A stretch of 64,000 nt of DNA from Rhizaria sp. SCN 62-66 (taxonomy: Eukaryota), in the NCBI GenBank assembly GCA_001724265.1, contig MEDY01000143.1, forward strand, positions 1 to 64,000, given 5' to 3'. Under the pieces are notes generated by a model. It saw nothing but the letters and a program-made list of their open reading frames with translations, had not been told where the DNA came from and made no database searches. The position numbers were made by a program, and so were the translations under genes. This document shows positions 2,207 through 20,344 of this stretch, one piece after another; position 1 is the first letter of the stretch; each line of letters begins with the position of its first letter.

Positions 2207-3064
2207 GTGCTTTCTTGGAATAATTAACTCGCTTAGCACCTTGGCGGAGTGAATGAATAACCGTGTAAAATTCAAGCTGAGGGCGTTTTGAGTGTACACG
2301 CACTGTACATGGCTTTTAGTAAGCTTGCATGTACATGCATGGACAAAAATGTACATTATAAATAAAATTTATCATTATTAATAGTTATTGGCATGTTTAA
2401 TTGATTGAAACGAAGGCATTATCTCTCCCCTGTCTGATCTAGTAAGCTTATGTTTGATTTCTCACTCGTTAGGGCAAGCTTACCATGGTTATGGCTACAA
2501 TAGCGCTAGCGACAGCGAGTCTGACACGGAAGATTAGGAGGAGTTAGTGAAACTAAGCGATGTGAGCTTCTTTTTTACTTTTTTTTGTCAACGAGGAGTG
2601 TAAGTTTCTAAGATGGGGAGATTAGAAGTAAAAGTATATGAAATTTATATGCTATTAGACCAAGAGATATGCTCAATTATGCTGTATATTGAAGACTGTA
2701 TTGAAGGGGAATAAAAATTAAGTTTGTACGTACTGTAATTTCCAAGACTTTGAACTTGGGTTGACATATTTGGTTACATGGATCTGGATTTACCAGGGTA
2801 ACGCGTGGGTTGTACACACGCGGGTCATATATTTGTTTGGACTCATCCTGTGCGTTACGGAGAATTAAAAAAATGTATTCATGTAGTTAATCTTCATGAT
2901 GTTCGCAAATTATACCCAATAAAAATAAACCAAAAACCATTCAGATTTCGCCTACTAACACCGGCACTTGCGGCCCTGTCGTTCAATAATAAAATCCAGT
3001 GCGCCTCGCGCTTCATAGATCTCAATTATGCTGCTCCTGCGCACGAGCCTTTTGCTGCATGAGC

Positions 3065-5580
3065 TCACGGCTGCTGCTGCTGCTGCTGCTGCTGGTTAGG
3101 CTGCTGCAGCTTCTTTGGTCAGCCAACTCCAATAGATCTCAGTTAAACGAGAAGACCGCCCGAACTTAAGCATATTATTCAGGCGAGGAAAAGAAACTAA
3201 CGAGGATTCCCTTAGTAACGGCGAGTGAAGCGGGAGGAGCTCCTCGCGCCCCAAGTTGTGTGCTGGAGACGTGTTGTCAGAGCGGCAGGCTGACCCGCTG
3301 ACGCATTTGTTGTTTGAGAAGTTCACGTTGCTTGAGCTTTTCTCGCTTGCGCAATGCTTCGTCTGCGCGCAACTTCACCAGGTCCTGGTGCGTGTCGGGC
3401 ATGGTGACATCGCGCTGCAGCTTTACCTGGGCAGTTATAAGCGCATGCGCATGCCGAAAGAAGCCCGCCAGCTGTTGCTGGTCGTTCGGCGACGACGCTC
3501 CTCGAGGCGGGGCGCCGTCCTCTAGACCCTGGTGGCCGTGATGCTCAAGCTTGCTGCCGCCATGCTGTGCATCTTGATCCGCGCCTGCGATCTTCCGCAC
3601 AACCTGAACCAGTCGCGTGAGCGACTCGCTTAGCGGCTCGCACACGACGGTATCGTAGCTGGCGCCGGAGCCCGATAGCAGCGCGTGTGCACGCCGCAGC
3701 TCGGTCCAGATGGCTGTGCAGCGGGGCGCGTAAAGCGAGCGCGTGCTGTTGTCCGTCGCGCAAAGGGGGTCCTCGATGAGCAACTCCGCGCGGCGATGAT
3801 CAACGCCCTTGAAACGGCAGGGCATTGTCTCAACGCCGGCGCCGTGATCGGGCGCAGAAACGCAAACCTGCGCGTAGCCGTGTGCGTTGTCAAGCAGCGG
3901 CTGGCGCCAGACGAGGTGACCCTGTCGCACAGAAACTGCGTGCACGGCGGGGTCAAAGGCGGTCGCGTAAAACGCGAAGAAGCCTTTAACAAGTGCCCCC
4001 AGGCTGCCATCGTCCTCTTGGTCATCGCTCGGCTGAGCCGCAGTGTCATTGCTCTCCGTTGCGCGAGCGACCGCGATCGACTCGGGCGCGCGGCGAGGAG
4101 CGTCGAGGATGTCGAGCATGTGCTCCGCAGGCTGCGCGTCGAACAAGTGTCCGTTCGAGTGCGAAACGATGGCGCGTGCGCCACCGATGACGGGGCCGAA
4201 GAAGACACGGTGGCGCTCAAGGTGCTCGCACACCGTTTGCGCCATGGAGCTGCCACCGCATCTGCTCTGCTCAGGACGCGGACCCTCCGCAGCGAGAAGC
4301 GACGCCTCTGCAGCCGAAAGCAGCGATGACGTCGCGTCCAGCTCCACAGCGGCATGTTCGTTGTTGTTCGTGTTCTTGGCTACAACAGCAACATCGGCGT
4401 CGTCGGCAAAATGCGAGGCGCCGCGGATTGCGCACTTGGCCTTGTCTTCCGGGTCCACAGGGGTGGCTTCTTCCTCTGCCTCGTCCTCGTCGTCTTCGTA
4501 CGCGTCGTCGTCCCCGTCCTCGGCGTCGTCGATGTCGGCATCGCCATGGGCGTCGCTGCGCGCGGCCTTAACGGCGCGGCACACAGCGGGCGAGCCACTC
4601 ACGAAGCGCTGCATTGCGTCGGCCGCGGCCTTGGAGCGGAAGACGTACGGCGGTAGCTTGGCCACGGCGGCGGCCGCGGCCTCGTCCGTCGCGGGGCTAG
4701 CGAGGTCGACGAGCTCAAACTCCTCCTCGTCGGGAAGCGCACTGCGGGCGCTGCTGTGCTTGCGCGCGTATGCAAAGGGGGTGGGTTGAACGATGCCGAG
4801 CGGGCTCTTGACGCGCAGCTGGAGGTACTGGATCACGAGCAGGAGGAGCGAAAATGAGTTGAGCAAGTGCTCGCGGGCGTTGATAAGACAGCGCGCCTTG
4901 GCCCACACCTTGACGGCCTTGAAGAGCGGGGCCGCCAAGGGGTACTTGCGCATGAGACGCCGAATGAGCTGCGTCTTGACGTTGACCTGGTCCTCGCTGG
5001 AGCTCACCTGCAGCTGCACGGGCTTGTCGCCGTGGTAGTAGTACATCGTTGACACGGGCACGCGCGGGCGCGTGAGCGCGTTCTTGACAAAAATCCGATC
5101 GTTTTTGATTGAGAGGCACAAGTTGCTGACGACCCTCTTGGCCACTGTTTTTGCCAACGGCCCTAAGCCCTGTGTGCGCACGATCGACACGTCGACATCG
5201 GAGCCGTTGTCGTCGATGCCCCAGGCCGTCGAGCCGAAGACGATGGCTGAGTACTCGCCCTTGTACTTCTTATGTAGCAGCTTTGAGATTAGCTGCACAG
5301 CAAGCGCGCGTCCCTTGCTCACGTCATTCGACACAGCGTGGGAATCGATTAGAGCTTGCGCTTGACGAGAAAGTTCGGACAGCGACAACGGCTGCGGCGT
5401 CAACTCAGCCGCGTCTGCCACGCTAAGTTCTAGGACCATGTCACGCACATGGGGATCAAGATCAATCGGCATAATTGTACCGGACAAGTTCTACACGTTT
5501 TTACTAATCTTTGACAGCTTCTAGTTGGCAATTGCAAGCTGCTGGGTGGACAAGTGGCCATTGGGCGAAGCGGCGCTCAT
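3065..5580 (-). CDS. Cid1/TENT-family (pol-beta-like) terminal nucleotidyltransferase (non-canonical poly(A)/poly(U) polymerase) with PAP-associated domain; probable start ATG 5580 with two in-frame TAGs; ends at TGA 3277 (unspliced) or TGA 3065 (if 3113-3294 is an intron)
   Basis: Motifs FGSTAWG...SDVDVSI, RPRVPV, VKVWAKARCL...LNSFSLLLLVIQYLQ, LGALVKGFFAFYA..FD...VSVRQG and LLIEDPL...NS. Upstream of the listed ORF the frame continues as MSAASPNGHLSTQQLAIAN*KLSKISKNV*NLSGTIMP with only TAG interruptions. The family call is firm; the termini are less so. Confidence 0.82.
3071..3094. repeat. (CTG)8 microsatellite; encodes Q8 on the minus strand in the candidate last exon of the nucleotidyltransferase
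   Basis: ctgctgctgctgctgctgctgctg, read directly. Confidence 0.85.
3117..3295. repeat. 8-bp inverted repeat (GGTCAGCC 3117-3124 / GGCTGACC 3288-3295) bracketing the rRNA-derived insert
   Basis: Read directly from the sequence; the two arms are exact reverse complements. Confidence 0.75.
3135..3287 (+). rRNA. Isolated fragment of the 5' end of 28S/LSU rRNA (not a full rDNA unit); clear match 3135-3242, weaker D1-like continuation to ~3287
   Basis: ACCGCCCGAACTTAAGCATATTATTCAGGCGAGGAAAAGAAACTAACGAGGATTCCCTTAGTAACGGCGAGTGAAGCGGGAGGAGCTC aligns with the conserved eukaryotic LSU 5' end (LR0R/NL1/ITS4 primer region: ACCCGCTGAACTTAAGCATATCAATAAGCGGAGGAAAAGAAACTAAC...GGATTCCC.TAGTAACGGCGAGTGAAGCGGGAAGAGCTC). 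Confidence 0.9.
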
Positions 5581-6273
5581 GGGATGAATACGCGAGCAGC
5601 TTACTGCCTCGGATTAAAAGAACCAATCAAAGAAAGGCAAACCAACATGGGATTTAGAAAATGAGTGAGGCGAACACATTTTTTGTTTCCATCGCAAGAC
5701 AGTGTAGTGAGCAAGAAATGACCATGAGTCAGGTGGCACTCGGTGGACACTTTCGTGGATTCGAAGCTGACTAAGCATTTAATTCACGAGGCTAGCGTAA
5801 TTCAATGCATGCATTGTGTGGTAACTATGTAAAAACTCGTAAATTAAGTTAGTTTCTTCGGATTTGCGCCTTGGTCTCAACTTAGGCAGATGTAATATTG
5901 GTGGAAAGCACAGTTCCAGCTTCACAGCTTGATGCAGGATTGTAGGTCCAATCCTGGATCACAGAATGACTCGCCACAAAATGAAGATTAAAATTAGCAT
6001 AAAAGTAACTCATTCAAAAATAATAAACAACGTAAATTCTCTCTGATGATCAAAATCATACATAAATGCTTGTACAAAAGTGACGTAACTGCTCGCCTTG
6101 CGGTTGACGGCGGTGGACGGCCAGCCAATTCGTGGACGCGATCACAGCTTCACGGTCACCCGTGATCATGGTCACCGAACCGAGAGGGCTTGTACACGAT
6201 GACATAGGAGCCATGTCCACCATAATACTACACAACAGCGCAGTATAAATTTGCAGACTGCACTATGACTGTA

Positions 6274-7220: not shown

Positions 7221-10200
7221 TTAGAATTTGGGAGGTAATAACACTTCCGTCACGTAAACAACTTCAACGTCAATAAATGGTGACAACAGCTCCAACCACG
7301 CGGTTTGTTGTGTACTCAGTTCGTCCCTCGGTCCCTTCACTTCAATCAGCTTGATGAACGACGGGCGCTGCTTTACTAAAGCAGCACCGTGGCCACAGAG
7401 TGCCGAGATGCGGTTTGTAAGAGTGCGGATGGAGCGCGCAGATGCTTCATAGTCAAATGCTGCGGAGCCGGGGGCCTTAACAGGTGCTGCGACAGATTCG
7501 ACAGCAGTACTCGCATTGTTCGCCACTGATTTTGCCGCCGCATCATTTACGGCAGGAGTGCAAACAACAGTCGTTGTTGCCCTCACAGCTGTCTCAGAGT
7601 GCTGTAACTCCTCCATGCATGCCTCTTTTTGAGTGTGCGAAAGTGCCGCGAGAACTAATGGGTCAGCCATCCAACGCGATAACGCGGGAAGTGCTGAGAC
7701 AGCCTCAATCACACTCGTCACATCTTCAATCTCGCTCGCAGCACTGGTACGCGCACTTGCACTCGCTGCTGTCGCTGATAGCGCGAGATGGAGGGTACAC
7801 GCACGCAGCAGCTTCGTTGTCGACAGAATCTTCGCCGGGCTTGCGCGTACCTCAACACCAGTTGACAAGATAGTTCCAAAATTCATGCTGCTTTTAGAAT
7901 GGATTCTTTGAGCAGAGCTACTGTTGCTGTCGGCAAATGCAGCGCCGCCGTTGATGGTGGCGCGCACGCGTTCCATAGAAATATCATTCGATAGCTCTGT
8001 CGTGATCTCCCGTGCAAGCAGTGACACCTTCCGTGACGCGCGCTCGACAGACGCGTTAATAACGCCAGAAAGGCTGCTTGGAGCTGAAAGCGGAGAGTTG
8101 GTGACTGCGAAGGTGCTTGTGTTCGCGGCCGTGAGAGGTGTGATGTGAGCGTAGAAGTAACACTTAAGACCAGTTGCATTGACATGACTCGCGTTGTTGC
8201 TACCCTCGCACGCACCAGCATTTGCATTCAGACCAGCAAGGATTTTTTTTTGACTATTCTCGTTAAAATCAACATCTTTTGTCACGTTCGCAAACGCTTT
8301 ATGTGTGCAGTGTGTGTCGTCGTTGCTTTCAGAGCTGTGCTTATTCTCAAGCTCGGATTTGGTGCCGACGTTGATTTTTGTGTCGAGGCTGGTTTGGATA
8401 ATACCAGCAACAGCCCTCTTGATGCGTGGACTCACAGCAAGCTCGTCACTACTCACGGTCATCTCGGCACTGAGAACAGTCACTTCGGTATAGCTCATAG
8501 TCACGCTGTTGCTACTCGGGGTCACCTCATACGACTCTGAGCGAAACTCGCGCTTCACCGTGCGGTTTACAGCATGAGCATCAGTAGCATCAGTATCACG
8601 AGCGTCTTGGTCATCATCACTGTCAGTCAACGTTAAGTCGCATAAGATTGATGTTGACCTTTGTCGTGCACTGCTTTTATCACTCTCGTTAGTGTTTACG
8701 CTCTTGCTTGAGTTTGCTTTGCTGCTGTTCTTGCCCCTCTTAGCCGGAGTTTTGAACACAGCCCCGTTATCAGCACTGGTGCCAGCGCCACTGCCACTAT
8801 CAACACCATGAACACTGCCTGACGTTATCCCAACAGCACTGCGCTTGTTCCCACTGCTGCGAGTCCGCCGCTGCGAGTCCGCCGCAGTCAGATCGCCACC
8901 GGCTTCATTTACAACCTCTGTGACAACTGTCGAGGCAGTGGGGTTCTCTGTAACGGGGCGTGCAGAAGTCACTGCAGCCGTTGTAGTCACAGAAGAAGAC
9001 GTACCTTTGCTCATGTTGTCGTGGTCATCGTCGTCACTGAGAATAACAACATCAGAGTCCGAGTCGGATTCAGAGCTGCCTTGCGCTGACTTTTTACGGC
9101 TCGTAGCTCTGCTGCCGTTGTTCCTCGCCTTAGGTGTTGTCTTCACGCCAGTGTTCTTGCTCGTGCCAGCATCATCACTCATTTTCTTCATGCCTTTCGC
9201 GCGACCGGCACTTGCGCGCGGTGTGAAAGCAAACGGATCGAAGGAGTGACTGTGGGCACCGCCGATAGTAATCCCGCCAGTCTTTGTGCCAGCGTTAGCA
9301 CTAGCAATGCTGTTCGTGTCCGCGTCATTAGCGCGGCGAGGAGCAGGAGTAAGGAAGCCCTTCATGAAGCCACTATTCGCAACACTACCTGCACCTGCAC
9401 TCGCACTCGCACTCGAGTTGTTGTTATTGTGGGACTTCGGTGTCGGACTTGCGCACGGGCTAAACATGGTGTTTGTCTTAGACTTGGTTGCAGGCGTAGC
9501 ATAAGCAACACTAGTTCGAGTCTTGATCGCACTCGAAGTCACGGTGATACCAACATTTACACCGTCCACGTGTGACCGCGAATATGACTGCGGCGGCAGA
9601 CTTTGTTGAGCCCGAGTTGCAGCGAAAAGTATAAGGGGATACTTAAATGGCATTGGTGACACAGTCGCAACGGAGGCGGATAAAATACCAGTTTGATGAC
9701 TACCATTATCTTTGATGCAGATTTTCTTGCCCGTATTCGTGTAGAACTGCGTTGTTACAATTGGAAAATAAACACCACCCTGAATGCAAGGAAACAGCTT
9801 ACTTTTATGACGGCACAGGCTGCCAGTGCTGATTGCAGCAAGGGGAGCTTCTCCAAGAGCAAACCCAGCACTCGGGGCTAGTAGCTTACCTTCAGCAGCG
9901 ATGCGAGGCTTAACTTCATGCTTCACGCCAATAGTATTGTTGTCAGTATCTTGCATCGGCATGAGTGGTGACTGCAGCAGTGAGAGGTAGCTTTTTTCAC
10001 TGGGGTCGCAGGTATTATGGGCGTTCACCGCACCTTTAACACCGAAGCTACTTGTGAGACTCTGGTGCTGCTCTTGCTGTTGTTGAATGTGACGTTGACG
10101 ATGCTGCTTCGAGGTTAGACGCGATGTCAGCAAACAGACAAGGCGGCTTAGCATTGATGCCCTCGCGGCAAGTGACTGAGAAGGAGAATGCGCATGTGAG

Positions 10201-13200
10201 TGATCAAGTGATTGTAAACACATTGACTTATGCGGAGACACCGGGAGACTATCCAGACTCAATTCACACCCCAAGAGTCGGGCAGCACAAGCAGTATCAC
10301 TTGTGTCGTGGGGTGCAATCGCATTGGCGCTAGTGGTAGCGCTGGAGTCCGAGTTGATGGAGGTACCTGTGGTCTCATTGATTATCATCTTAGATGCTGT
10401 GGTTGTGCTAAAGTGAACAATCCCCCAAACGTGAAAGTGCATTTGCGCTACCGATGCGGATAAACTTTCAGCAGCGGCCTGACTGGCACTACTCGCAAGG
10501 CGGTGTAACACAGCAACGAGAGGTGACGACGCAGCGTTGGCAAGCATCGATAGTATATGCGGCACGGAGTTTGTGTCTTCATTGTTCAGTGCAAATGCTG
10601 TTGAAACCGAGTATAAGTCAACATTGCAGCAACGTGCAAGAAGCAGGGTCGCAGCAACACGGCGTTGCTCACAGTCGTTACACAATTCATCAGCGAGCAA
10701 AAAAGGCACGGCTGCACCCATCTTCGAGCTAACACCAAGACTGCCATTGCCAGAAGCATCAAGACCTAACATGTCATCCAAAGAGCAGCCGTACACACAG
10801 TGACCGCGACGAGCATCCGAGGCTCTAGCACTCGAGCTAGAGTTAGAGCTGAAATCTGACTGAGAGATGAAGTTGTTTTTAGTCTCCGGAAACACTACTG
10901 CGAGAACGGAGAAAAGCATTCGCGCATGTACAGGTAGGCACTGAACACCGTCATTCGTGACTGTGAGCAGAGACGAGACTGCCGCTGCAAAAGCAGAGTC
11001 AGGAACCGACACAAGCCACTCCCGAGCACACGCAATCTCGTTGCGATCATCGACAGCACCACAATGCGTTGTCGATTGCAATGACGCTAAGTTGCCACCT
11101 TGCTGGCGCTTCACATCGCCGCCCACGTGCAGCGGCGCCCTTGCAAGCGGCGCCAGCACAGGACACACGGCGCGCGCCGCGAGTGTCGCGCGGTCCGCAG
11201 AGGCGCGGAGCAGCACGGTCGCAACTGTGAGCGCGGACGGCGGGCACAAAGCGGGCGCGGTCCACAGCGACTGCAATAGAAGTCGTGCGGGGAGTACGCC
11301 AAGCGTGTTCGTCTTGCCGCCGGGGATGAGTGTGAATGATGTTGGGTGCGTAATGCGATGCTGTTCTAAGTACATTCCACTCATTGTAACGTTGTTACCC
11401 GTATTAGCTGGATCAGAACGATAAGTATTATTCACATTGTTGCAGTTTGCGTTGTTGCTTAGCACCAACGCGGCTGTGAGTTCTGAGACAGTGACAGAGC
11501 CAACCCAACTCGTACTGTCAGCCTTGGTCTCGGAAGTAACTGCGGGTAAAGTGTGGACACAGTCACTTGCGACAAGTACACGGTCATTGAACGCGGCACT
11601 AACAGAGTCCCCTTGTCGAGGCGCAAGCTCCCCACATGTCAGCGTGTCAAACAAACGAACAGCCTCAAAGAGCTTCGGTTGCCGCGGCGCGACATCATCG
11701 TCAGTGGACAGCTCTGCACAACGGCAAGATTCTATCTCACGAGCGGTCGGGCTAGAGCGCGTGATATCGCTGCTGCCGTTTACACTGTTGCTCGTGGGAA
11801 AGTCGCGCCACAGACAGAGGTCCGGCAGGCCGCCCGACCAGTCGCGGGCGCCGCCGGCGAATGCGGCGCACACCACCGCCGTCGCGACGGGGCCGAGGCG
11901 CTCGGCCAGGCCCTGCAGCAGGGCGAGCGTAAACGCGGAGCCCGGCTCGGGGGTGGGCAAGGGAGGCGGCATCGGCAACGCAGAGCGAATGTGAGCTGCC
12001 GAGTTGTTACTATGCGCAGAGCCTTGGCCAGCCGTGTCTAAGTGTTCGGCTCCACCTAAGGGTGGCCAGTAAACGCCACGCATGCGGCGGCCGTAGTGCC
12101 GAGCCCACTGTGCTTCAATAAACTGTGACAGCGATTGTTGGCAACGTGGTCGAGAGCAAGAACTGCACAGTAACTGTTGTGTGCGATCGTTGTTGTTGTG
12201 ATCGTAGCATTGAAGGATAGTGTCGAGACGTGCTTGAATTGCACTCGCGCGCAGTTGAGCAAACGACCCTGAGTCGAACAAGAGGGGCGCATCTTGCGAC
12301 TCGTTCTGACTGTGCATAAACACGCTGACGTCGTCGGAGACATCATTAGCGTCAGTGCCGCTGTTATCAGGTAATGGCCAGAGGATGTCGGCAAACATGA
12401 TCGAAAAGAGCGTGAAGAAAAGTCCGTTTTCGGCATGCGCACCGGCCCAAGCCCCTTCCTCCGGCCGCGCAAAGTGGTCAAGCACGAGCTGCTCGACGCT
12501 GACGGGCGCGGGTAAGTGGAACGGGTCCACCCTTACACCCAGATCAGTCTCGGAGTCACGGCTGTAGTGCGGCGCAGTGTTAAGGAGAAGCGCATTTCCA
12601 CCTTTAAGGACTTCAGGTTCCCGGGGTAACAATACACCGTATAGCCGAGTCTCCTCAGCCTCCTAAGCAGTAAACATATCGCCATAGAGGCTGTCACCAG
12701 CATTCGCAGTTGAGCTGCCGCTGCTATTGATCGCGCCCGTGTCGCTGCTGCTGGAGCCGAGTCGCGCGGCGGCGTCCAGCTTCCGGATCAGCGTCCGCAG
12801 CGCAGTGCCAGAGGGGTCGTTCGAGGTTAAGCCGCTCAGGAAGCGTGACTTGACTCCGATGCCGCCGGACGGCAGCGCGATGCCGGATAGAGTGCGCACA
12901 GTCACAAGCGACTGCGAGCAGAGACGGCGGAGCAAAGCGGGGCGGGACATAGGCAGTGCGAGCGGAAACAGTGAGGGACGTGATGTCAACCTCTGTGTTA
13001 GTGCTGCTGTAGTGGCCGTTGGCGTTGTCCGAGCCTCATCATTCATGCGATTCTGCAGAGTCTGGAAAGGGTATAGGAGTGACATGATCGAGTTGACACT
13101 TGTGAAACTGGAGCGGTAAGCAGCGCCAGCGTTACAAAGAGCGGAGCTATCGTCACAAACAGTAATTGTGAGTGAGTTAAGGAAGGAAAGGCCAACAACA

Positions 13201-16200
13201 TCAACATGGTCACTGCCAATGGCAACGTGACTTGCAACACTCGCGGATGGGTGACCGGTGCTCTCAGTTGCACAGTCAATCTTGACACTGCTGCTGGCAG
13301 CCGTATCAAGGTTCGGGATGGCAATGCTTTCAGTGCCAGACATGATAGTCACGCCATTCTCATCCATATCGACATCTTCGTCGTCGGAGTCAAGATTCAC
13401 TGAGCTCCGCTGTTGCTGCTTCTTACCGTTCGCGTCGGGCTTCGTGTTCCTGCTGCTGCCACAGCCAGTGCCAGTGTGAGTGGGCGTGGCGGCTGACCGC
13501 CCACGGCCACGCCCGCGGCCCCGGCCACGTGCTGTCGGGCTCGCAGCCATAACAGTGTCATCCTCGTCGTAGTCGCACTCACTATCACTAGCTTCACTTG
13601 CATCATCACTGCTGGAGCTTGAGCCAGAGTCTGTACAAAATTCGCTATCATCGCTGATAGTAGCTGAGGCCGCAGCAGCAGCGGCAGCGGCAGCCTGCCT
13701 GGCACTGGTCCGGCCCTTAGATACGACCGCCGCCGGCTTGGCTTTACTGGCGATCTTGCAATCAACGCGAGCGTCATCAGCGGCGCCCTTCGTCTTACGC
13801 CCCCCACTGGCTCCATTGCGCTTATAGCTACTGCTCTTGGCGTTGTTCGTGGTGTCGCCTTCGGAGATCGAGTTCGCGCTTGCGCTCGCAGCCGTACTCT
13901 GCTTGCAATTCGCACTCGCTTGCTTCTAAGTCTGCTTCTTAGCACCTTTGCCCTTGCTCTTCGCCTCTGCTGTTGCAAGTGCAGCGGCGGCTGCTTCCTC
14001 GGCGTCAACACCTTCAGACAGCTTCTTGGTCACCTTGCTCCATAGCACCATCGCGCGGTCCTCAAAGTCAAGCCGCCCTCCGGCCGCCGCCATCGCGCTC
14101 GTGTCGCGCAGCGCAGCAACGGCAAACGCCAAGGCACCGGCGCCCGCAACCGGGACCGGTGCAGCAGCAGCGGCTGTGACAGAGGCGGGGACGTAAGCCG
14201 AGTGGCCAGGAGAAGCAGCGGAGGCTGAGGCTAAAGCTAAGTCAGAAGCAGAGGAGTCGTTGCGCGCCGCGCTAGCGTCACTGCCGTGAGCAGAAAGAAT
14301 AGTGACAGTGGGCAGTGTGACCGTGTCGAACGACTTCATATGGGCGGATAAACACACAAGAGCGCGGCAGTAGAGCTGAGAGCGGCGGTGAGGGATGAAA
14401 CCAGTGTAACCCACAGTAGACTGCTCAGAGTCATTTCCCGTGTTGTTGCTGCTTTGCGCGAGCAGTAGCATGCGTGCAACGCTTGCAGAGAGCACAAACG
14501 CTTGCTCGTACGCCTTCGCTTTCTCGAGAACCTTGATTGCAAGGATGATAACGCGGGCCAAAATGTCAACAGCGTCCAAGCGTGCAGGCAAGTGCAGCGC
14601 GGCATTGCAGCTGATCGCGGAACCGGCACTTGCACTGCGTCTGTGAGCGCTATTGTTGCCGCCGACCGTAGGCATCGCTGCTACCGTAGGCATCGCTGCT
14701 GCTGTAGGTATCGCTGTTGCCGGCAACAGTGACTGGAACACGCCATGCGCGAGTGACCGCAAATCGGGAGTCGCAGTCTGTGTTTGAGATTGCTCACAGC
14801 CAATATCAGCCTGGGCAGAGCTAAGTGGCAGCGGGCACATGCTATGTACGGTCTTAAGCACCATATCAAGCGTTTTTCCGGCGCTCAACCCAATCGGTCG
14901 GGCGCAGAAAGTTAAGCCGCTCGGCCACAGCTCTCCAGTTTCACAGTGACTCCTACCACTGCTCTGTACACTGTTGTTGTGTTTCGCAATGATAAGCCGC
15001 AGAAGCGAGATCGCTACATCAGCAACGCGCGCAAGCGGAACCAAGTCAGGGGGCAAGATGACTGTGGGCACGGTAACTGCGGACGCTGCTGCGGCGCTCA
15101 GCGTTGTCACAGCCATCGTCACTGCACTGTCATGATGTTGTGACAGTACATTGGAGTCAGTGTTAGTCACTGAAAGCGTGCTACTATGATTTTGAGCATT
15201 GATAGCTGCAGCAGCAGCAAGGACAGCTGATGCAACACTTGCGTTGTTATTGCGGTTCTCAGTTAAAGAGTCACTACTGTCCGCAGTCAACAATAGAGGC
15301 GTATTGCCAGACTGCTTCACTTGCTGTTGCTGTTGCTGCCGTTTGTGTTGCAGTTGCTGTAGCTGCTGCAGCTTTTTCCCTTGCCTGCCAGTAACTACGC
15401 CGTCAAAGTTCAGCCTCACACTGAGCGTTCCCTTGCTGCCGTAGCGAAGTGATCCCTGAAACTTAGATTTGAGACTCAGTGCAATGCGCGCGTAATACCA
15501 CGATAGCGGGATAGTAAAGGCGAGTTTCACCCTATCTGCCAGTGTGACCGGGTTATACGGCACCGACCGCCAGAGGCCACTGCAGTCAGCGCCGGAGAAA
15601 CCCCTGCCAGAGCGCCCGCTGATCACGGTCACAGCGCGGGAGGAGGCGACCCCAGAGCACTCGGTTACACTAAGGCTGCTCGCGGCGAGAGAGCCGTTGA
15701 CATCGCCCACAGCAGTTGGGGTTGATCCTGAAGGGCTATGTAGAGAGCCCAAACTACTGTTAGTGATCTTCGTACTCAAACGCAAGTTCGACACAGAACG
15801 CTTATTGTTACCCTTTGCGTTCGTAGGCTTGATGTTAGCATCAGTATCAACACAAATCACCTTATCATCACCATCATCGTCAACGTCGTCGACAACAAAC
15901 GCAGCCTCATCAATCTCATTCGCACCCGCATAATCACGCGCACGAGAGCTCGTTCCAGCGCCAAACTTTGACCCAGCGCGAGACTTCGAGCCAGCGGCAG
16001 ACTCGCGCGCCGCACTGGGCGTTGCAGCTGCCGCAGCAGTCACGCTGCCGGTCAAAAGCGCGGCCTCCGCCTCCGCCAGTGCCACCTAAGTCAGCAGTCC
16101 CACAGTGCCCGCCGTGGCCGCCCCTGTCGCCGCCGTGGCCGCCGCCGTGGCCGCAGTTGTCGCTGTCGACGCCGCGGCAGCTCCGGAGGCCGTGGGCAGC

Positions 16201-19200
16201 GGGAGCACCGTGGCGACGGCGCGGACGGCTGCCGTGGCCGCCGCCCGCTGCGGCGCGGCGCCTTGCCACGCCGCGGCCGCAACGACGCCCGTGGCGCCGC
16301 CGACGTGCCCGACCGCGAGCAGCGAGGCGCCGCCGCCGGGCTCGGCCGCAGCCGAGGCGCCCACGGTCCAGGACGCTGCGGCGGGGGCCAGACCCAGGGA
16401 GGCCGAGAGCCCGGGCTCGTTAGCCAGGGTGCTCGCAAGGTACAGCAGACGCAGCGAGAGGAACAGCAGCGGGGCGGAGACGAGAGGTGTCACTACAGTG
16501 ACCGACGCCAAGTCAGATGTTGAAGCCGCGCCAGAGCTAAAGCTGGCACTAGAGCTAGAGGGAGAACTAGAGCTAGGGCTAGAGCGAGTACCACCAAGTG
16601 CTACCTTGAGCTGCGATGTTTTGCGGGGAAAAAGCGTGGCTTGCGGCGAGAAAAGTGAGTAACTGCGCGCGAAGTGCTGCGGAAGAGAGTAGCGACCAAG
16701 GGCCAGGAGCGCTGAGGCAGGGGTGACCGTGAGCGTCAGTGGCGTATTTACCGTGTTGTTGATGTGCAAAGACTGTGGTGTCATGAAGGCGATACCGACA
16801 GGATCGGTCGTGTGACAACTGCTCTGTGAAGAAGACAAAACTGCAAGTCGAGCCCATAGCTGTGGGTTCTGCAAGCGGACATACAACGCCAGAGGGTTAT
16901 CCAACGAGAGAAATGGTAACAAAGAGCCAAAATTAGCACTCGCACTGTGACAGTCAATGCTGTAATACGTGCGGGGATACAGCGGACTTGTGCGTTGAGT
17001 AACCGTAAGCAAGCGATCATCACAATTCGCGCTCACACTTGCACTCACACTCTCACTGAAGCTAGAGTTGCTGTGAGAGTTGTTGTTGTTATTGAAGTCG
17101 AGGTCGTTATCTTGCTCTTCCTCCTCTTCCTCGTTATCATCACCATCAACAACATCCGCACTCGCGCTCGTACTCGTGCCAGTCGCATTTGGGCTGCTGA
17201 TGCCGCTGCTACTAATGTCGTTGTCGTTCCGCGCTGTTTGCGACGCCATCACTGCGGTGACGCGCAGCCCGTACCACGCCTGGAACGGCGTCGGCGACGG
17301 CACAGTCGTCGGCAAAGCACTGGCCAACAATGGCCAGACCCAACGGGGCGGCGGCGGCGGCAAAGATGGTGACGGCAACAGTGATGATGATGAGGCAGAG
17401 TCAAGTGACTGCGAGCTCGTGCTTTCGTTGTTAGGTGACTGTGACGCAGGCAAATTGCTTGCATTTGTCGCAGGACTGCCAGAATTAGCACGATATTGCC
17501 ACGTTTTGGGCTTTGTTGCAGAGAGAGTTGCGGTTTCGTCGACAGTATCAACATCGACGAAGTCATCGTCATCATTCATCGCAGCGACATTCGCAGCATG
17601 AGCGTCCGTTAGCAGCAAAACCTCATCGCCAGTAGCCTTACTCTTGCACGCGATGTAACTGTCCCTATTATTGCAATCGCTGTTAGCATTTGTCGCGTCA
17701 TCGACGGCGTCGGCGTAGGCGTCGGCGTCAGGCCTGCCCAGCACCACCGACACCGCGGACGCCAGCGGTGGATGCAGCGGTGGCAGCGCAGTCGCAGCGG
17801 CAGCACCGGCCACAGCAGCCGCAGAGCTGAGCCGAGCCGCAGCCGCAGCGGCGGCCGTGGCGGCGTTTACCGAGTCTGAGACGTTGCCACGCAAAGTAAC
17901 ACCAGAGGTTTGGAGGTGCTGTTGACGTGTCTGCAAATACTGCGTCACAGCGTTAACCGCCGTTGACAGAGCGTCGCGTGGCGCACTGTGGTGCGCGCTA
18001 AGGCCGATTAACCACGAGCCGGCGGCCGTTGCCAGTGCGTCCGCCGCGGCCTCGACCTCCGGCTTAGCGTTAACAACAACAGACGCAGCCTCATCATCAG
18101 CGCCGGCAGCAGCATCCACGTATTGAACACCGTCGCTAATAGCAGAATTATTGCTCTTGTTGCTATTACTTTCGCTCTTGTTCACACTGTGTATGCCGGA
18201 GATCGAGTCAACGCTGGCAAGTGTAACGAGTGTGCGAATGCTCTCAGCGTCCAGCCCGAGCGGTGCCGCGGGCGCCAGTGACGTGGCGAGCGTGCCCAGC
18301 CACACGCACTTGCTCAATAGTGAGAGCACGGGGGGCGCGATGCGGAAGACAAGCCGCGAGCTTAGACTGGCCCGCAGATAGGAATAGATGTGCGGAGCGT
18401 CGAGCAGTAAGGGCATCGTTGTGGGGGACTGTAAGGGGCTACTTAGACCAAAATCAGTCGGCGGTGAGTTGGGGCTTGCAATCACGCTGGTGTTGCCGAA
18501 GTAAGGCTGTTTGGCTAAGTACAGCAGCAGAGCGCGGCGAGTCTGGCTCGCAGTCATCGCTGTTGTCGCTGCTGCAGCTGTGGCACCAGCGTTGTTGTTA
18601 TTGTTATTGTTCTTGTAGCTTGGGCTAGAGCCATTCTTATTCGCGCTATTGTTGTTAGCGGCATTGCCAGAGGTGCGCGATCCACTAGAGCCATTGCTAG
18701 AGCTGTTTTTGCTCCCGCTGCCACCGGCACTACTTGCAGTGTCACTGCTGCCGGTTGAACCAGCTGCAGCAGTGGCAGCGCAAAACAACGCGATCAACGA
18801 AGACAACGACTGCTGCTGTTGTTGTTGTGGGTACATACCGCTGCTGTTATGATGACCGTGAGCCGGGGCAGAAACCGTGGACTGCAGGGGATCGAGCTTG
18901 GTCGCCGCGCCGTTGAGCTGCGCCAGCTGCTGCGGTGTGAGCTTCAAGCGCCTGATCACGCCGGTCAAAGCGGCGTTAGACAGCAAAGACACGAGCGTGA
19001 GGACCTTGAGCCGCTGCGGCGTCAAGGAGCTTTGCTCAAACTCCGTTGCGTAATAAGGACTGTCGGAATTGTAAGGGGATTGGGCGTCTAAGTAGGACTG
19101 TGGCGCCGTGAACGCCTGGTCAAAGGCCTCGATGAAGACAGGAGTCGCAGTTGCATCTGCTGCCGCCGAGCCAGCTGTAAGTGCGAGAGTGCGTGATTGC

Positions 19201-20168
19201 GCGTGCGACTGTGCACTGTGCGAGCTATCTGACTCTGGTTCTGCCGCGGCCGCTGACGCCACGGTCACCGACGGGAAAGTGAGAGCTGTGATGTGTCGTT
19301 GCAGACCTGAGAAAACGAACGCGTTACTCTTGGAGTCGCTCTCGATCTCATTGCTAGTATCGTTGCTGCTGTTGCCATCGCTGCTGTGGCTACACAGGTC
19401 GCTATACGCGGTGTCCGAGAGCAGCGCACTTGTGGTGATGGCAATCAGCGGCGCTAAGTCGTGGCAAAGCAGCGCCTCCTCCTGGTCAATCTCGCTCTCA
19501 TTGACTGCATTGACGCCAAATCCAGCGCCACCAGCACTGTTACCCGCATTGCGGAAGCCGTGACTGCCTCCGGAACTCGCACTCGCACTGTTTTGACTGT
19601 TGCCGTAACTGGTCGTGTTTGCAGTTGCGTTACTGCTGTTTGAGGTACTGTTCGCGTTACTGTTTGCGTTGCCGTTGCTGTTGCTGGAGCTTTGCCGCCG
19701 GCGCTGCGCCGCTACCGCCGCGCTAATAGTGCGCGCGGCCAACTCACGACTCAAGACCCACTTGCCGATGGCATTGCGCGTGAACAGCAGCTTCGCGACT
19801 GCTGCTTGCGAGGGCAGCGGAAGATAGAAGAGGTGCGCTAGAAGCTGCCGCTCACTCGCGGTGAAGAGCGACGGGTACTTAAGAAACGCGGGCAGGGCAA
19901 GGTGCGCGAGGTGCTCGACGTAACGCAGAGATGTGGGCGGGAGGCGCCGGGTCGAAGCGGCCGCGGCCGCGTCAGTTGCAGTGTTGGAAGGCTGGGAAAC
20001 CTCAGAGGAAGACTGAGACGCGGAGGAAAGCGCGGATAGATACTCGAACACGGTCTGGCTGTGCGCAATCGCAGTGTCTGCTGCGCTGCAAAGATCGGTT
20101 GGTAAAGATGTGATAGTGCTGGGGTTGGGGGGTGGCCAGGGGCCGTGTTGCAGCCCCGAGGAGGACAT
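7221..20168 (-). CDS. FAN1: FAN1-like (Fanconi-associated nuclease 1, VRR-NUC) protein, ~4,315 aa, single reading frame with three in-frame TAG codons (16088-16086, 13928-13926, 12665-12663)
   Basis: N-terminal YVEHL...PSLFTASERQLL..LFYLP..SQAAVAKLLFTR...KW; TPR-like KVLEKAKAYEQA...HRRSQLYCRALVCL..H; VEQLVLDHF...GAHAENGLFFTLFSIMFADIL; WSGGLPDLCLWR; C-terminal KLIEVKGPRDELSTQQTAWLELL...VEV. These occur in FAN1 order across four listed ORFs that share one frame (12,948 nt, divisible by 3). Ends in TAA. Confidence 0.88.
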
Positions 20169-20344
20169 CGATGAACTGCTCTGATAGCGGAGAGGAGAAA
20201 ATATGAGATAAGTGGGTTTCAAAGATGAATTAAGAGATATAATAATAGAATTAAATTAGAAATTACATGGGAATTCCACTCTATTAGCCATGTGCGAAGT
20301 GACGGAACTTTCATCGAGCTGCGTCTCTTTGAAGATATGTTGAA

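Follow-up and report, generated by a model that had tools for sequence, protein, structure and literature searches.

How does a piece of ribosomal RNA (rRNA) sequence come to lie in the last codons of a protein-coding gene, and does it do anything there? The question is raised by a locus in contig MEDY01000143.1 of Rhizaria sp. SCN 62-66, an uncultured sludge eukaryote represented by a metagenome assembly (GCA_001724265.1); positions 1 to 64,000 of this contig were analysed and are called the window hereafter. A predicted nucleotidyltransferase gene on the minus strand runs into a segment of about 179 nucleotides (nt), and comparisons with rRNA and with an orthologue (the contig L001, described below) support the view that the core of this segment (3116-3294) is an rRNA-derived piece, foreign to the gene, which alters the gene's end. 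What the rRNA piece is, how far it extends, that the orthologue lacks it and that the stop codon is new are read directly from these comparisons. The segment is probably a recent filler insertion, specific to a lineage or an allele, that came from the repair of a break, truncated the nucleotidyltransferase and has no function of its own. The argument starts from these features:

3277..5475, minus strand: coding sequence of the nucleotidyltransferase in its present form (ATG 5475-5473, TGA 3279-3277; 732 amino acids)
3116..3294, unstranded: foreign segment of ~179 nt (right edge where the homology to L001 ends, with ~2 nt precision; left edge where AAG AAG C returns)
3134..3242, plus strand: copy of the 5' end of the large subunit (LSU) rRNA, approximately model positions 1-110, antisense to the gene (RF02543 at 80.2 bits, and exact rRNA contigs over 3148-3242)
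3243..3294, unstranded: 52 nt between the rRNA copy and the gene, carrying the new stop codon (3279-3277, minus strand)

The core was recognised as rRNA in two ways. A cmscan search of 2900-3500 matched the eukaryotic LSU family of Rfam (LSU_rRNA_eukarya, RF02543) at 3156-3235 on the plus strand (model positions 24-103, E 3.5e-19), with a score of 80.2 bits that lies above the gathering score of 50. An Rfam run on the whole 64-kb window at gathering thresholds listed no match, which is a filter effect, as the match emerges only when a short stretch is searched with E-value thresholds. In the cmscan alignment two base pairs of the first LSU helix differ from the Rfam consensus by compensatory swaps that preserve the helix, and the source of the copy was therefore a working rRNA. 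We also compared positions 2400-6000 of the window with the contigs, not the reads, of four public runs (X1, X2, X4 and X5, the last a poly(A) RNA run). Abundant rRNA contigs in X2 and X5, runs that also contain the organism, are identical to the window from 3148 or 3151 to 3242 (an exact match of 95 nt over 3148-3242) and different beyond on both sides, with loose ends at 3151 and 3242. At 3134-3142 one rRNA contig reads AGACCTCAG and the window AGATCTCAG; given this reading and the extent of the contig match, we place the rRNA-like part at ~3134-3242 (109 nt). The earlier note on this DNA had proposed an antisense match of ~110-150 nt to the LSU 5' end. The identity and the orientation stand (the RF02543 match is on the plus strand and the gene on the minus strand), and the length comes out at the low end of that range. 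The copy sits outside any ribosomal DNA (rDNA) unit, in unique DNA flanked by coding sequence and its 3' region, and no second rRNA match was found with Rfam in the 64-kb window.

The remaining 52 nt (3243-3294), searched on both strands, matched nothing in Rfam at E<=10 and have nothing similar elsewhere in the window; no Rfam family matches 3236-3375 either, and the Rfam matches in 2980-3160 were rejected as chance-level (E>=0.94). Searches for the source of the 52 nt and for the organism's rDNA returned 0 matches for a 22-mer and a 28-mer (genome_contigs, prokaryote genomes; the 22-mer searched in genome_contigs was taken from 3243-3294) and 0 for a 33-mer (viral_contigs). A separate observation concerns 3247-3367, where the summed contig depth (2127.7 in the RNA run X5, 83.9 in X2) is far above that of the neighbouring gene bins; in X5 it exceeds even that of the rRNA bin, and there is no Rfam match in this stretch.

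Was the rRNA piece always part of the gene? A protein search yielded three proteins among 8000 scored candidates, namely the window's own, P0002 (78% identity) and P0003 (56%); when longer proteins with the C-terminal 79 amino acids were sought, only the window's own protein was returned. In a scan of metagenome contigs 174 stretches fitted the pattern, and two loci were confirmed (L001 and L002). L001, a contig of 3124 nt with 79% amino acid identity to the window gene and a conserved 5' region, aligns with the gene strand up to window position 3297/3295 (..CAGCGG), where the homology ends. Past CAGCGG it stays in frame for at least 70 codons, mostly Gln, to the end of the contig, and the rRNA piece is absent from its orthologous site. 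It is therefore not a conserved feature. On the gene strand, the window instead reads ..QQMRQR followed by VSLPL-TGA (TGA 3279-3277), which the insert encodes. What lies behind the insert is the following:

3065..3115, minus strand: remnant of the ancestral Gln-rich tail with TGA 3067-3065, behind the new stop codon and 2 nt out of frame; resembles L001 2918-2924 and 3091-3116
3070..3094, unstranded: perfect (CAG)8 / GCT trinucleotide repeat (period 3, 8.3 copies, 100% matches), adjoining the insert

The remnant, AAG AAG CTG CAG CAG CCT AAC (CAG)8 CCG TGA (3115-3065), is in the frame of the L001 tail and translates as KKLQQPNQ8P-TGA. It resembles L001 both right after CAGCGG (..CAA AAG AAG CAG..) and near the contig end (CAG CCG AAA CAG CAA CAG..), and the AAG AAG C that marks the left edge of the insert also occurs in L001. 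Cutting out 3294-3113 yields KLQQPNQQQQQQQQP-TGA (3067-3065). Both readings of the gene strand, with and without the insert, are as the earlier note had described them. Of the origins that it had offered, a captured rRNA piece that truncated the gene agrees with the orthologue, which lacks the piece, reads through in frame and continues a Gln tail where the window stops at VSLPL-TGA.

Contigs of the public runs bring the comparison closer to the window itself. Those of X1 and X4 share with L001 three differences from the window (3343, 3353 and 3366). One X1 contig, at depth 44.4, covers 2400-3061 and, judging by equal depth, apparently also 3308-3401, with ~528 letters between the two stretches vs 246 in the window; we infer that it carries the long tail without the rRNA piece. 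No X1 or X4 contig aligned to 3126-3246, a result that, coming from contigs only, is no evidence of absence.

Window-identical contigs and contigs that diverge by 7-10% occur at near-equal depth over 2400-6000 (X1 27/34.7 and 29.4/32.4, X2 5.4/4.76, X4 12.4/8, X5 2.9/2.4). A single diploid organism with two haplotypes may account for them, which would make the insert allelic. P0002 and P0125, a member of the P0003 cluster, are both listed with a longest contig of 162,512 nt, and only one copy is in the window; these two may be paralogues on one contig.

A join made by the assembler is a rival explanation. In a metagenome, the source here, two flanks can be joined through rRNA k-mers; the contigs of other assemblies break at the rRNA core, and no single independent contig seen in the four runs spans the whole insert. 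Neither junction, however, falls within the conserved rRNA core. An exact contig of 3592 nt from X2, possibly the run of the source sample, contains the left one; this contig matches 2400-3173 with 0 differences at the depth of the flank. The right one is implied by the exact 731-amino-acid protein ending in VSLPL, which is present on four contigs of the European Nucleotide Archive (ENA) and requires that junction. Since the two flanks are also adjacent in the relative (L001 and the X1 contig), we regard a chimeric assembly as very unlikely.

If the join is real, could the insert be removed from the transcript? Splicing out 3294-3113 as a newborn spliceosomal intron (GT..AG, 182 nt, phase 0) would restore ..QQMRQR/KLQQPNQ8P, and its ends keep the frame, as noted earlier. 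The candidate can be set against three introns of a DnaJ gene in the window (177, 186 and 229 nt, GC 0.35-0.39), whose exons join in frame and which have AG/GTACG[CT] donors and pyrimidine-rich ..CAG ends; the motif GTACGT itself is not enriched in the window (18 found vs 24.4 expected) and marks donors only where GC drops. Its length falls within their range of 177-229 nt, a CTGAC lies near its 3' end, and there is a precedent in Daphnia, where a new intron matches an rRNA gene (an excerpt of PMC4202315). The other signals point away from splicing. The donor is GG/GTCAGC vs AG/GTACG[CT] in all three local introns, which bears out the departure from the GTACG consensus remarked on before; GC is 0.52 vs 0.35-0.39; the acceptor, ..GACCAAAG, has no pyrimidine tract; and the adenosine of CTGAC is just 6 nt from the 3' end. 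Near the junctions there are one GT and six AG, so chance alone would be expected to provide a pair that restores the frame. In the one poly(A) RNA run, of which contigs only were compared, the insert is not bridged by any RNA contig, and X5 has no contig of this locus over 3243-3448, which for the same reason is no evidence of absence. One RNA joint row (X5), at the masked repeat 3062-3103, was omitted from the layout, and it leaves room for splicing nearby. Taken together, the donor, the GC content, the acceptor and the missing bridge argue against the intron proposed in the earlier note, and we consider it unlikely. The fuller version, an intron caught at birth in which an antisense rRNA filler of a single haplotype or lineage is spliced from GT (3294) to AG (3113) and rescues a short Gln tail in a host that reads UAG as sense, is likewise improbable. 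Splicing seen in RNA reads would make the locus more important, because dated intron births with a known source sequence are few.

The edges of the insert carry the features that a mobile element might leave:

3117..3124, unstranded: left arm of an 8-bp inverted repeat, GGTCAGCC, at the insert's left end; both the minimum-free-energy and the centroid structure have their fold closed by it
3288..3295, unstranded: right arm of the repeat, GGCTGACC, at the right end of the insert
3230..3249, unstranded: 20-nt near-palindrome with one mismatch, spanning the 3' edge of the rRNA copy

The 8-bp inverted repeat claimed in the earlier note is present, though not beyond chance on its own: in 601 nt there are 14 inverted pairs about as good, this one included, and what is notable about it is its placement at both insert ends. 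That placement is what one would expect of a small mobile element, MITE-like (miniature inverted-repeat transposable element) or hairpin-ended, with 8-bp terminal inverted repeats and an rRNA piece as cargo. Such an element should, however, leave a target-site duplication, and no repeat is common to the flanks (..CTTT and CGCT..); a repeat of 8 bp is short, and no other copy of the insert was found when the 64-kb window was compared with itself. A mobile element is thus a quite improbable source. At the inner edge, the 7 nt past 3242 are the reverse complement of the rRNA end at 6/7 positions. An inverted 11-mer (3124-3134) that matches the L001 tail was set aside as chance, the same best local score being reached in 364/1000 shuffles.

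Does the rRNA piece serve the enzyme in whose gene it lies? The predicted product is, by its sequence, a Cid1-family (Cid1/GLD-2/TUT-like) nucleotidyltransferase. Two Pfam domains score above their cut-offs (MTPAP-like_central, PF22600, 1.3e-07; PAP_assoc, PF03828, 1.5e-06), the FGSTAW..SDVDV motif (palm GS and DxD) is invariant in 3/3 sequences, and an NCBIfam search with the enzyme gave no match. At E<=0.01 there are 17 distinct relatives with solved structures, every one of them a GLD-2, TUT4/7, URT1, Cid1 or trypanosome TUTase. Trf4 is not among them, so the TRAMP-type tailing of rRNA intermediates, to which the earlier mention of Trf4/Cid14-type enzymes points, finds no footing in the sequence. 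The third catalytic Asp (TUT4 ..GDIS, GLD-2 ..VDLN) stands opposite the Gln of VQLQVS (~5035-5018, minus strand) in the alignments, which are from HMMER only; this Gln is conserved in both relatives too. The enzyme's own activity is therefore uncertain, and the family may be catalytically impaired. The protein also has long acidic and low-complexity inserts.

These data bear on the idea of a functional antisense module, in which a 3' untranslated region (UTR) or an intron with 109 nt complementary to the 28S 5' end ties the enzyme to pre-rRNA. The orientation is antisense, the complement to an abundant rRNA is long and exact, and the literature has taken up the complementarity of 3' UTRs to rRNA (an excerpt of PMC4911919). 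Yet an antisense orientation has a chance of 1 in 2, the orthologue lacks the tract, no RNA cover of it from this locus was seen in the contigs, and the candidate partner is a GLD-2/TUT/Cid1-type enzyme with Gln aligned to the third catalytic Asp. A link to rRNA surveillance is unsupported because the enzyme resembles GLD-2/TUT4/Cid1 and not Trf4; together with the lack of conservation of the rRNA piece in the orthologue, this leaves the connection between the enzyme and rRNA tailing that the earlier note had drawn without support. We hold a functional module to be extremely unlikely.

RNA contigs of the window variant cover 3449-3714 and 3790-4623 of the gene with 0-1 differences, and in the same run the intergenic stretch 2400-3125 has depth 0; the truncated allele is therefore probably expressed.

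We thus return to filler captured at a repaired break. The break would have occurred in or beside the CAG/CAA-rich repeat that encodes the tail, where the (CAG)8 repeat (3070-3094) is likely a fragile site. End joining would have repaired it, with a piece of rRNA or rDNA captured or copied as template, and ~179 nt of filler would have entered the last codons, its core being the 109-nt LSU rRNA 5' end in antisense. Repair would then have left two signatures, the 8-bp inverted ends and the short fold-back where the rRNA copy stops. The frame now goes five codons into the insert (VSLPL) and ends at the TGA that the insert supplies; the protein loses its Gln-rich tail, with the palm and PAP-associated domains intact, and with continued use of the old poly(A) site the antisense rRNA tract would join a longer 3' UTR. 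The mechanism, its timing and the lack of a function of the insert's own are our interpretation. One further feature may belong to the same event:

2988..3027, unstranded: difference cluster; over 2400-3061 the X1/X4 contigs show 11 differences from the window, 8 of which fall in these 40 nt

Within it and just beyond, 3001-3028 is like both edges of the rRNA copy, with a 13/14 direct match to 3132-3145 and CCTCGCGC in common with 3242-3249. The cluster near 3001-3028 may have been templated collaterally during the repair proposed here.

Several points weigh against filler at a repaired break. The repair signatures are weak: counted against similar pairs, the 8-bp repeat is no more than chance would give, and the stability of the fold is ordinary, with z at -1.19 for the insert and its flanks (3105-3305) and 29/200 shuffles folding at least equally well. 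The only indication that the copy derives from the organism's own rDNA is the exact 95-nt match to an rRNA contig in runs that also contain the organism. The long tail read from the X1 contig follows from equal depth values and has no listed record. To these are added the break of independent contigs within the insert and the omitted X5 joint row, both described above.

By itself the insert matters little, being another case of abundant-RNA or rDNA sequence used as filler at a repaired break; what distinguishes it is the clean before-and-after comparison against the orthologue. For annotation, the gene end is VSLPL-TGA, and the rRNA-like tract should not be called an rRNA gene.

The gene raises a second question for annotation, that of the genetic code. 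Two in-frame TAG codons lie in its conserved N-terminal extension (5523-5521 and 5493-5491, minus strand), where L001/L002 have TCG/AGG and CAG/CAG, and L001 in turn has TAG at 2683-2685 where the window has CAG, with conserved coding going on beyond. Two of these three TAG positions are opposite CAG (Gln) in orthologues and one is opposite TCG/AGG. Elsewhere in the window, a frame of 4344 codons (20255-7224, minus strand) is interrupted only by three TAG (16088, 13928 and 12665); a relative of 2637 amino acids aligns with its core and also, in a weak, colinear match, with the stretch upstream of two of the three. The 12 gene ends checked among 16 listed frames are TAA (9) or TGA (3), and the DnaJ gene ends in one more TGA. 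This suggests that UAG is a sense codon, probably for Gln, and that UAA and UGA are still stops; no tRNA gene, hence no suppressor tRNA, was found in the 64-kb window. If TAG is sense, the start of the nucleotidyltransferase would move to the ATG at 5580-5578. With in-frame TAG in the contig, the genetic code needs checking before genes are called.

Other observations concern the surroundings. The giant low-complexity frame (7224-20255, minus strand) has at its end a FAN1-like core and a VRR-NUC domain, a layout that the 2637-amino-acid relative has as well, and the region around it seems intron-poor. Several further frames of 1700-3200 codons have no Pfam match. The stretch 2642-2762 has a contig depth of 20-30x its flanks in X1, X2 and X4 (1271, 199 and 140), and several contigs diverge after 2729; it occurs once in the window, matches nothing in Rfam and looks like a dispersed repeat in the samples. 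Among named organisms, those with the closest relatives of the BCKDH E1-alpha gene are opisthokonts, at 52-60% identity.

How does the locus compare with known systems? The host gene has the palm and PAP-associated domains in common with Cid1/GLD-2/TUT4-type enzymes, and its best solved relatives are GLD-2, TUT4, URT1 and Cid1; unlike them, its protein has Gln aligned with the third catalytic Asp, long acidic and low-complexity inserts and, in its family, a Gln-rich tail. Fragments of rRNA genes, or rRNA pseudogenes, exist dispersed outside the rDNA array. Like these, the present copy is truncated (109 nt of a ~3.4-kb model) and sits in unique DNA, as the only rRNA match in 64 kb; unlike them, it is inside coding sequence and offers a datable contrast of presence and absence with the orthologue.

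Tracts complementary to rRNA in the 3' UTRs of messenger RNAs (mRNAs), as treated in excerpts of PMC4911919 and PMC3763539, are short statistical motifs. The mRNA of the present gene would likewise be complementary to 28S if the old poly(A) site is used, but the tract is a recent copy of 109 nt that is not conserved in the orthologue. In Daphnia, one newly gained intron matches an rRNA gene of D. pulex and was attributed to break repair, according to an excerpt of PMC4202315. Within what that excerpt covers, the two cases share a short rRNA-gene piece that has newly appeared in a nuclear gene and that close relatives lack, edges marked by short repeats and an origin by break repair proposed from these. 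They differ in that the edge repeats are direct in Daphnia and inverted here, and in that the present piece lies in the last codons, supplies the stop codon and has splice signals that fit the local introns poorly.

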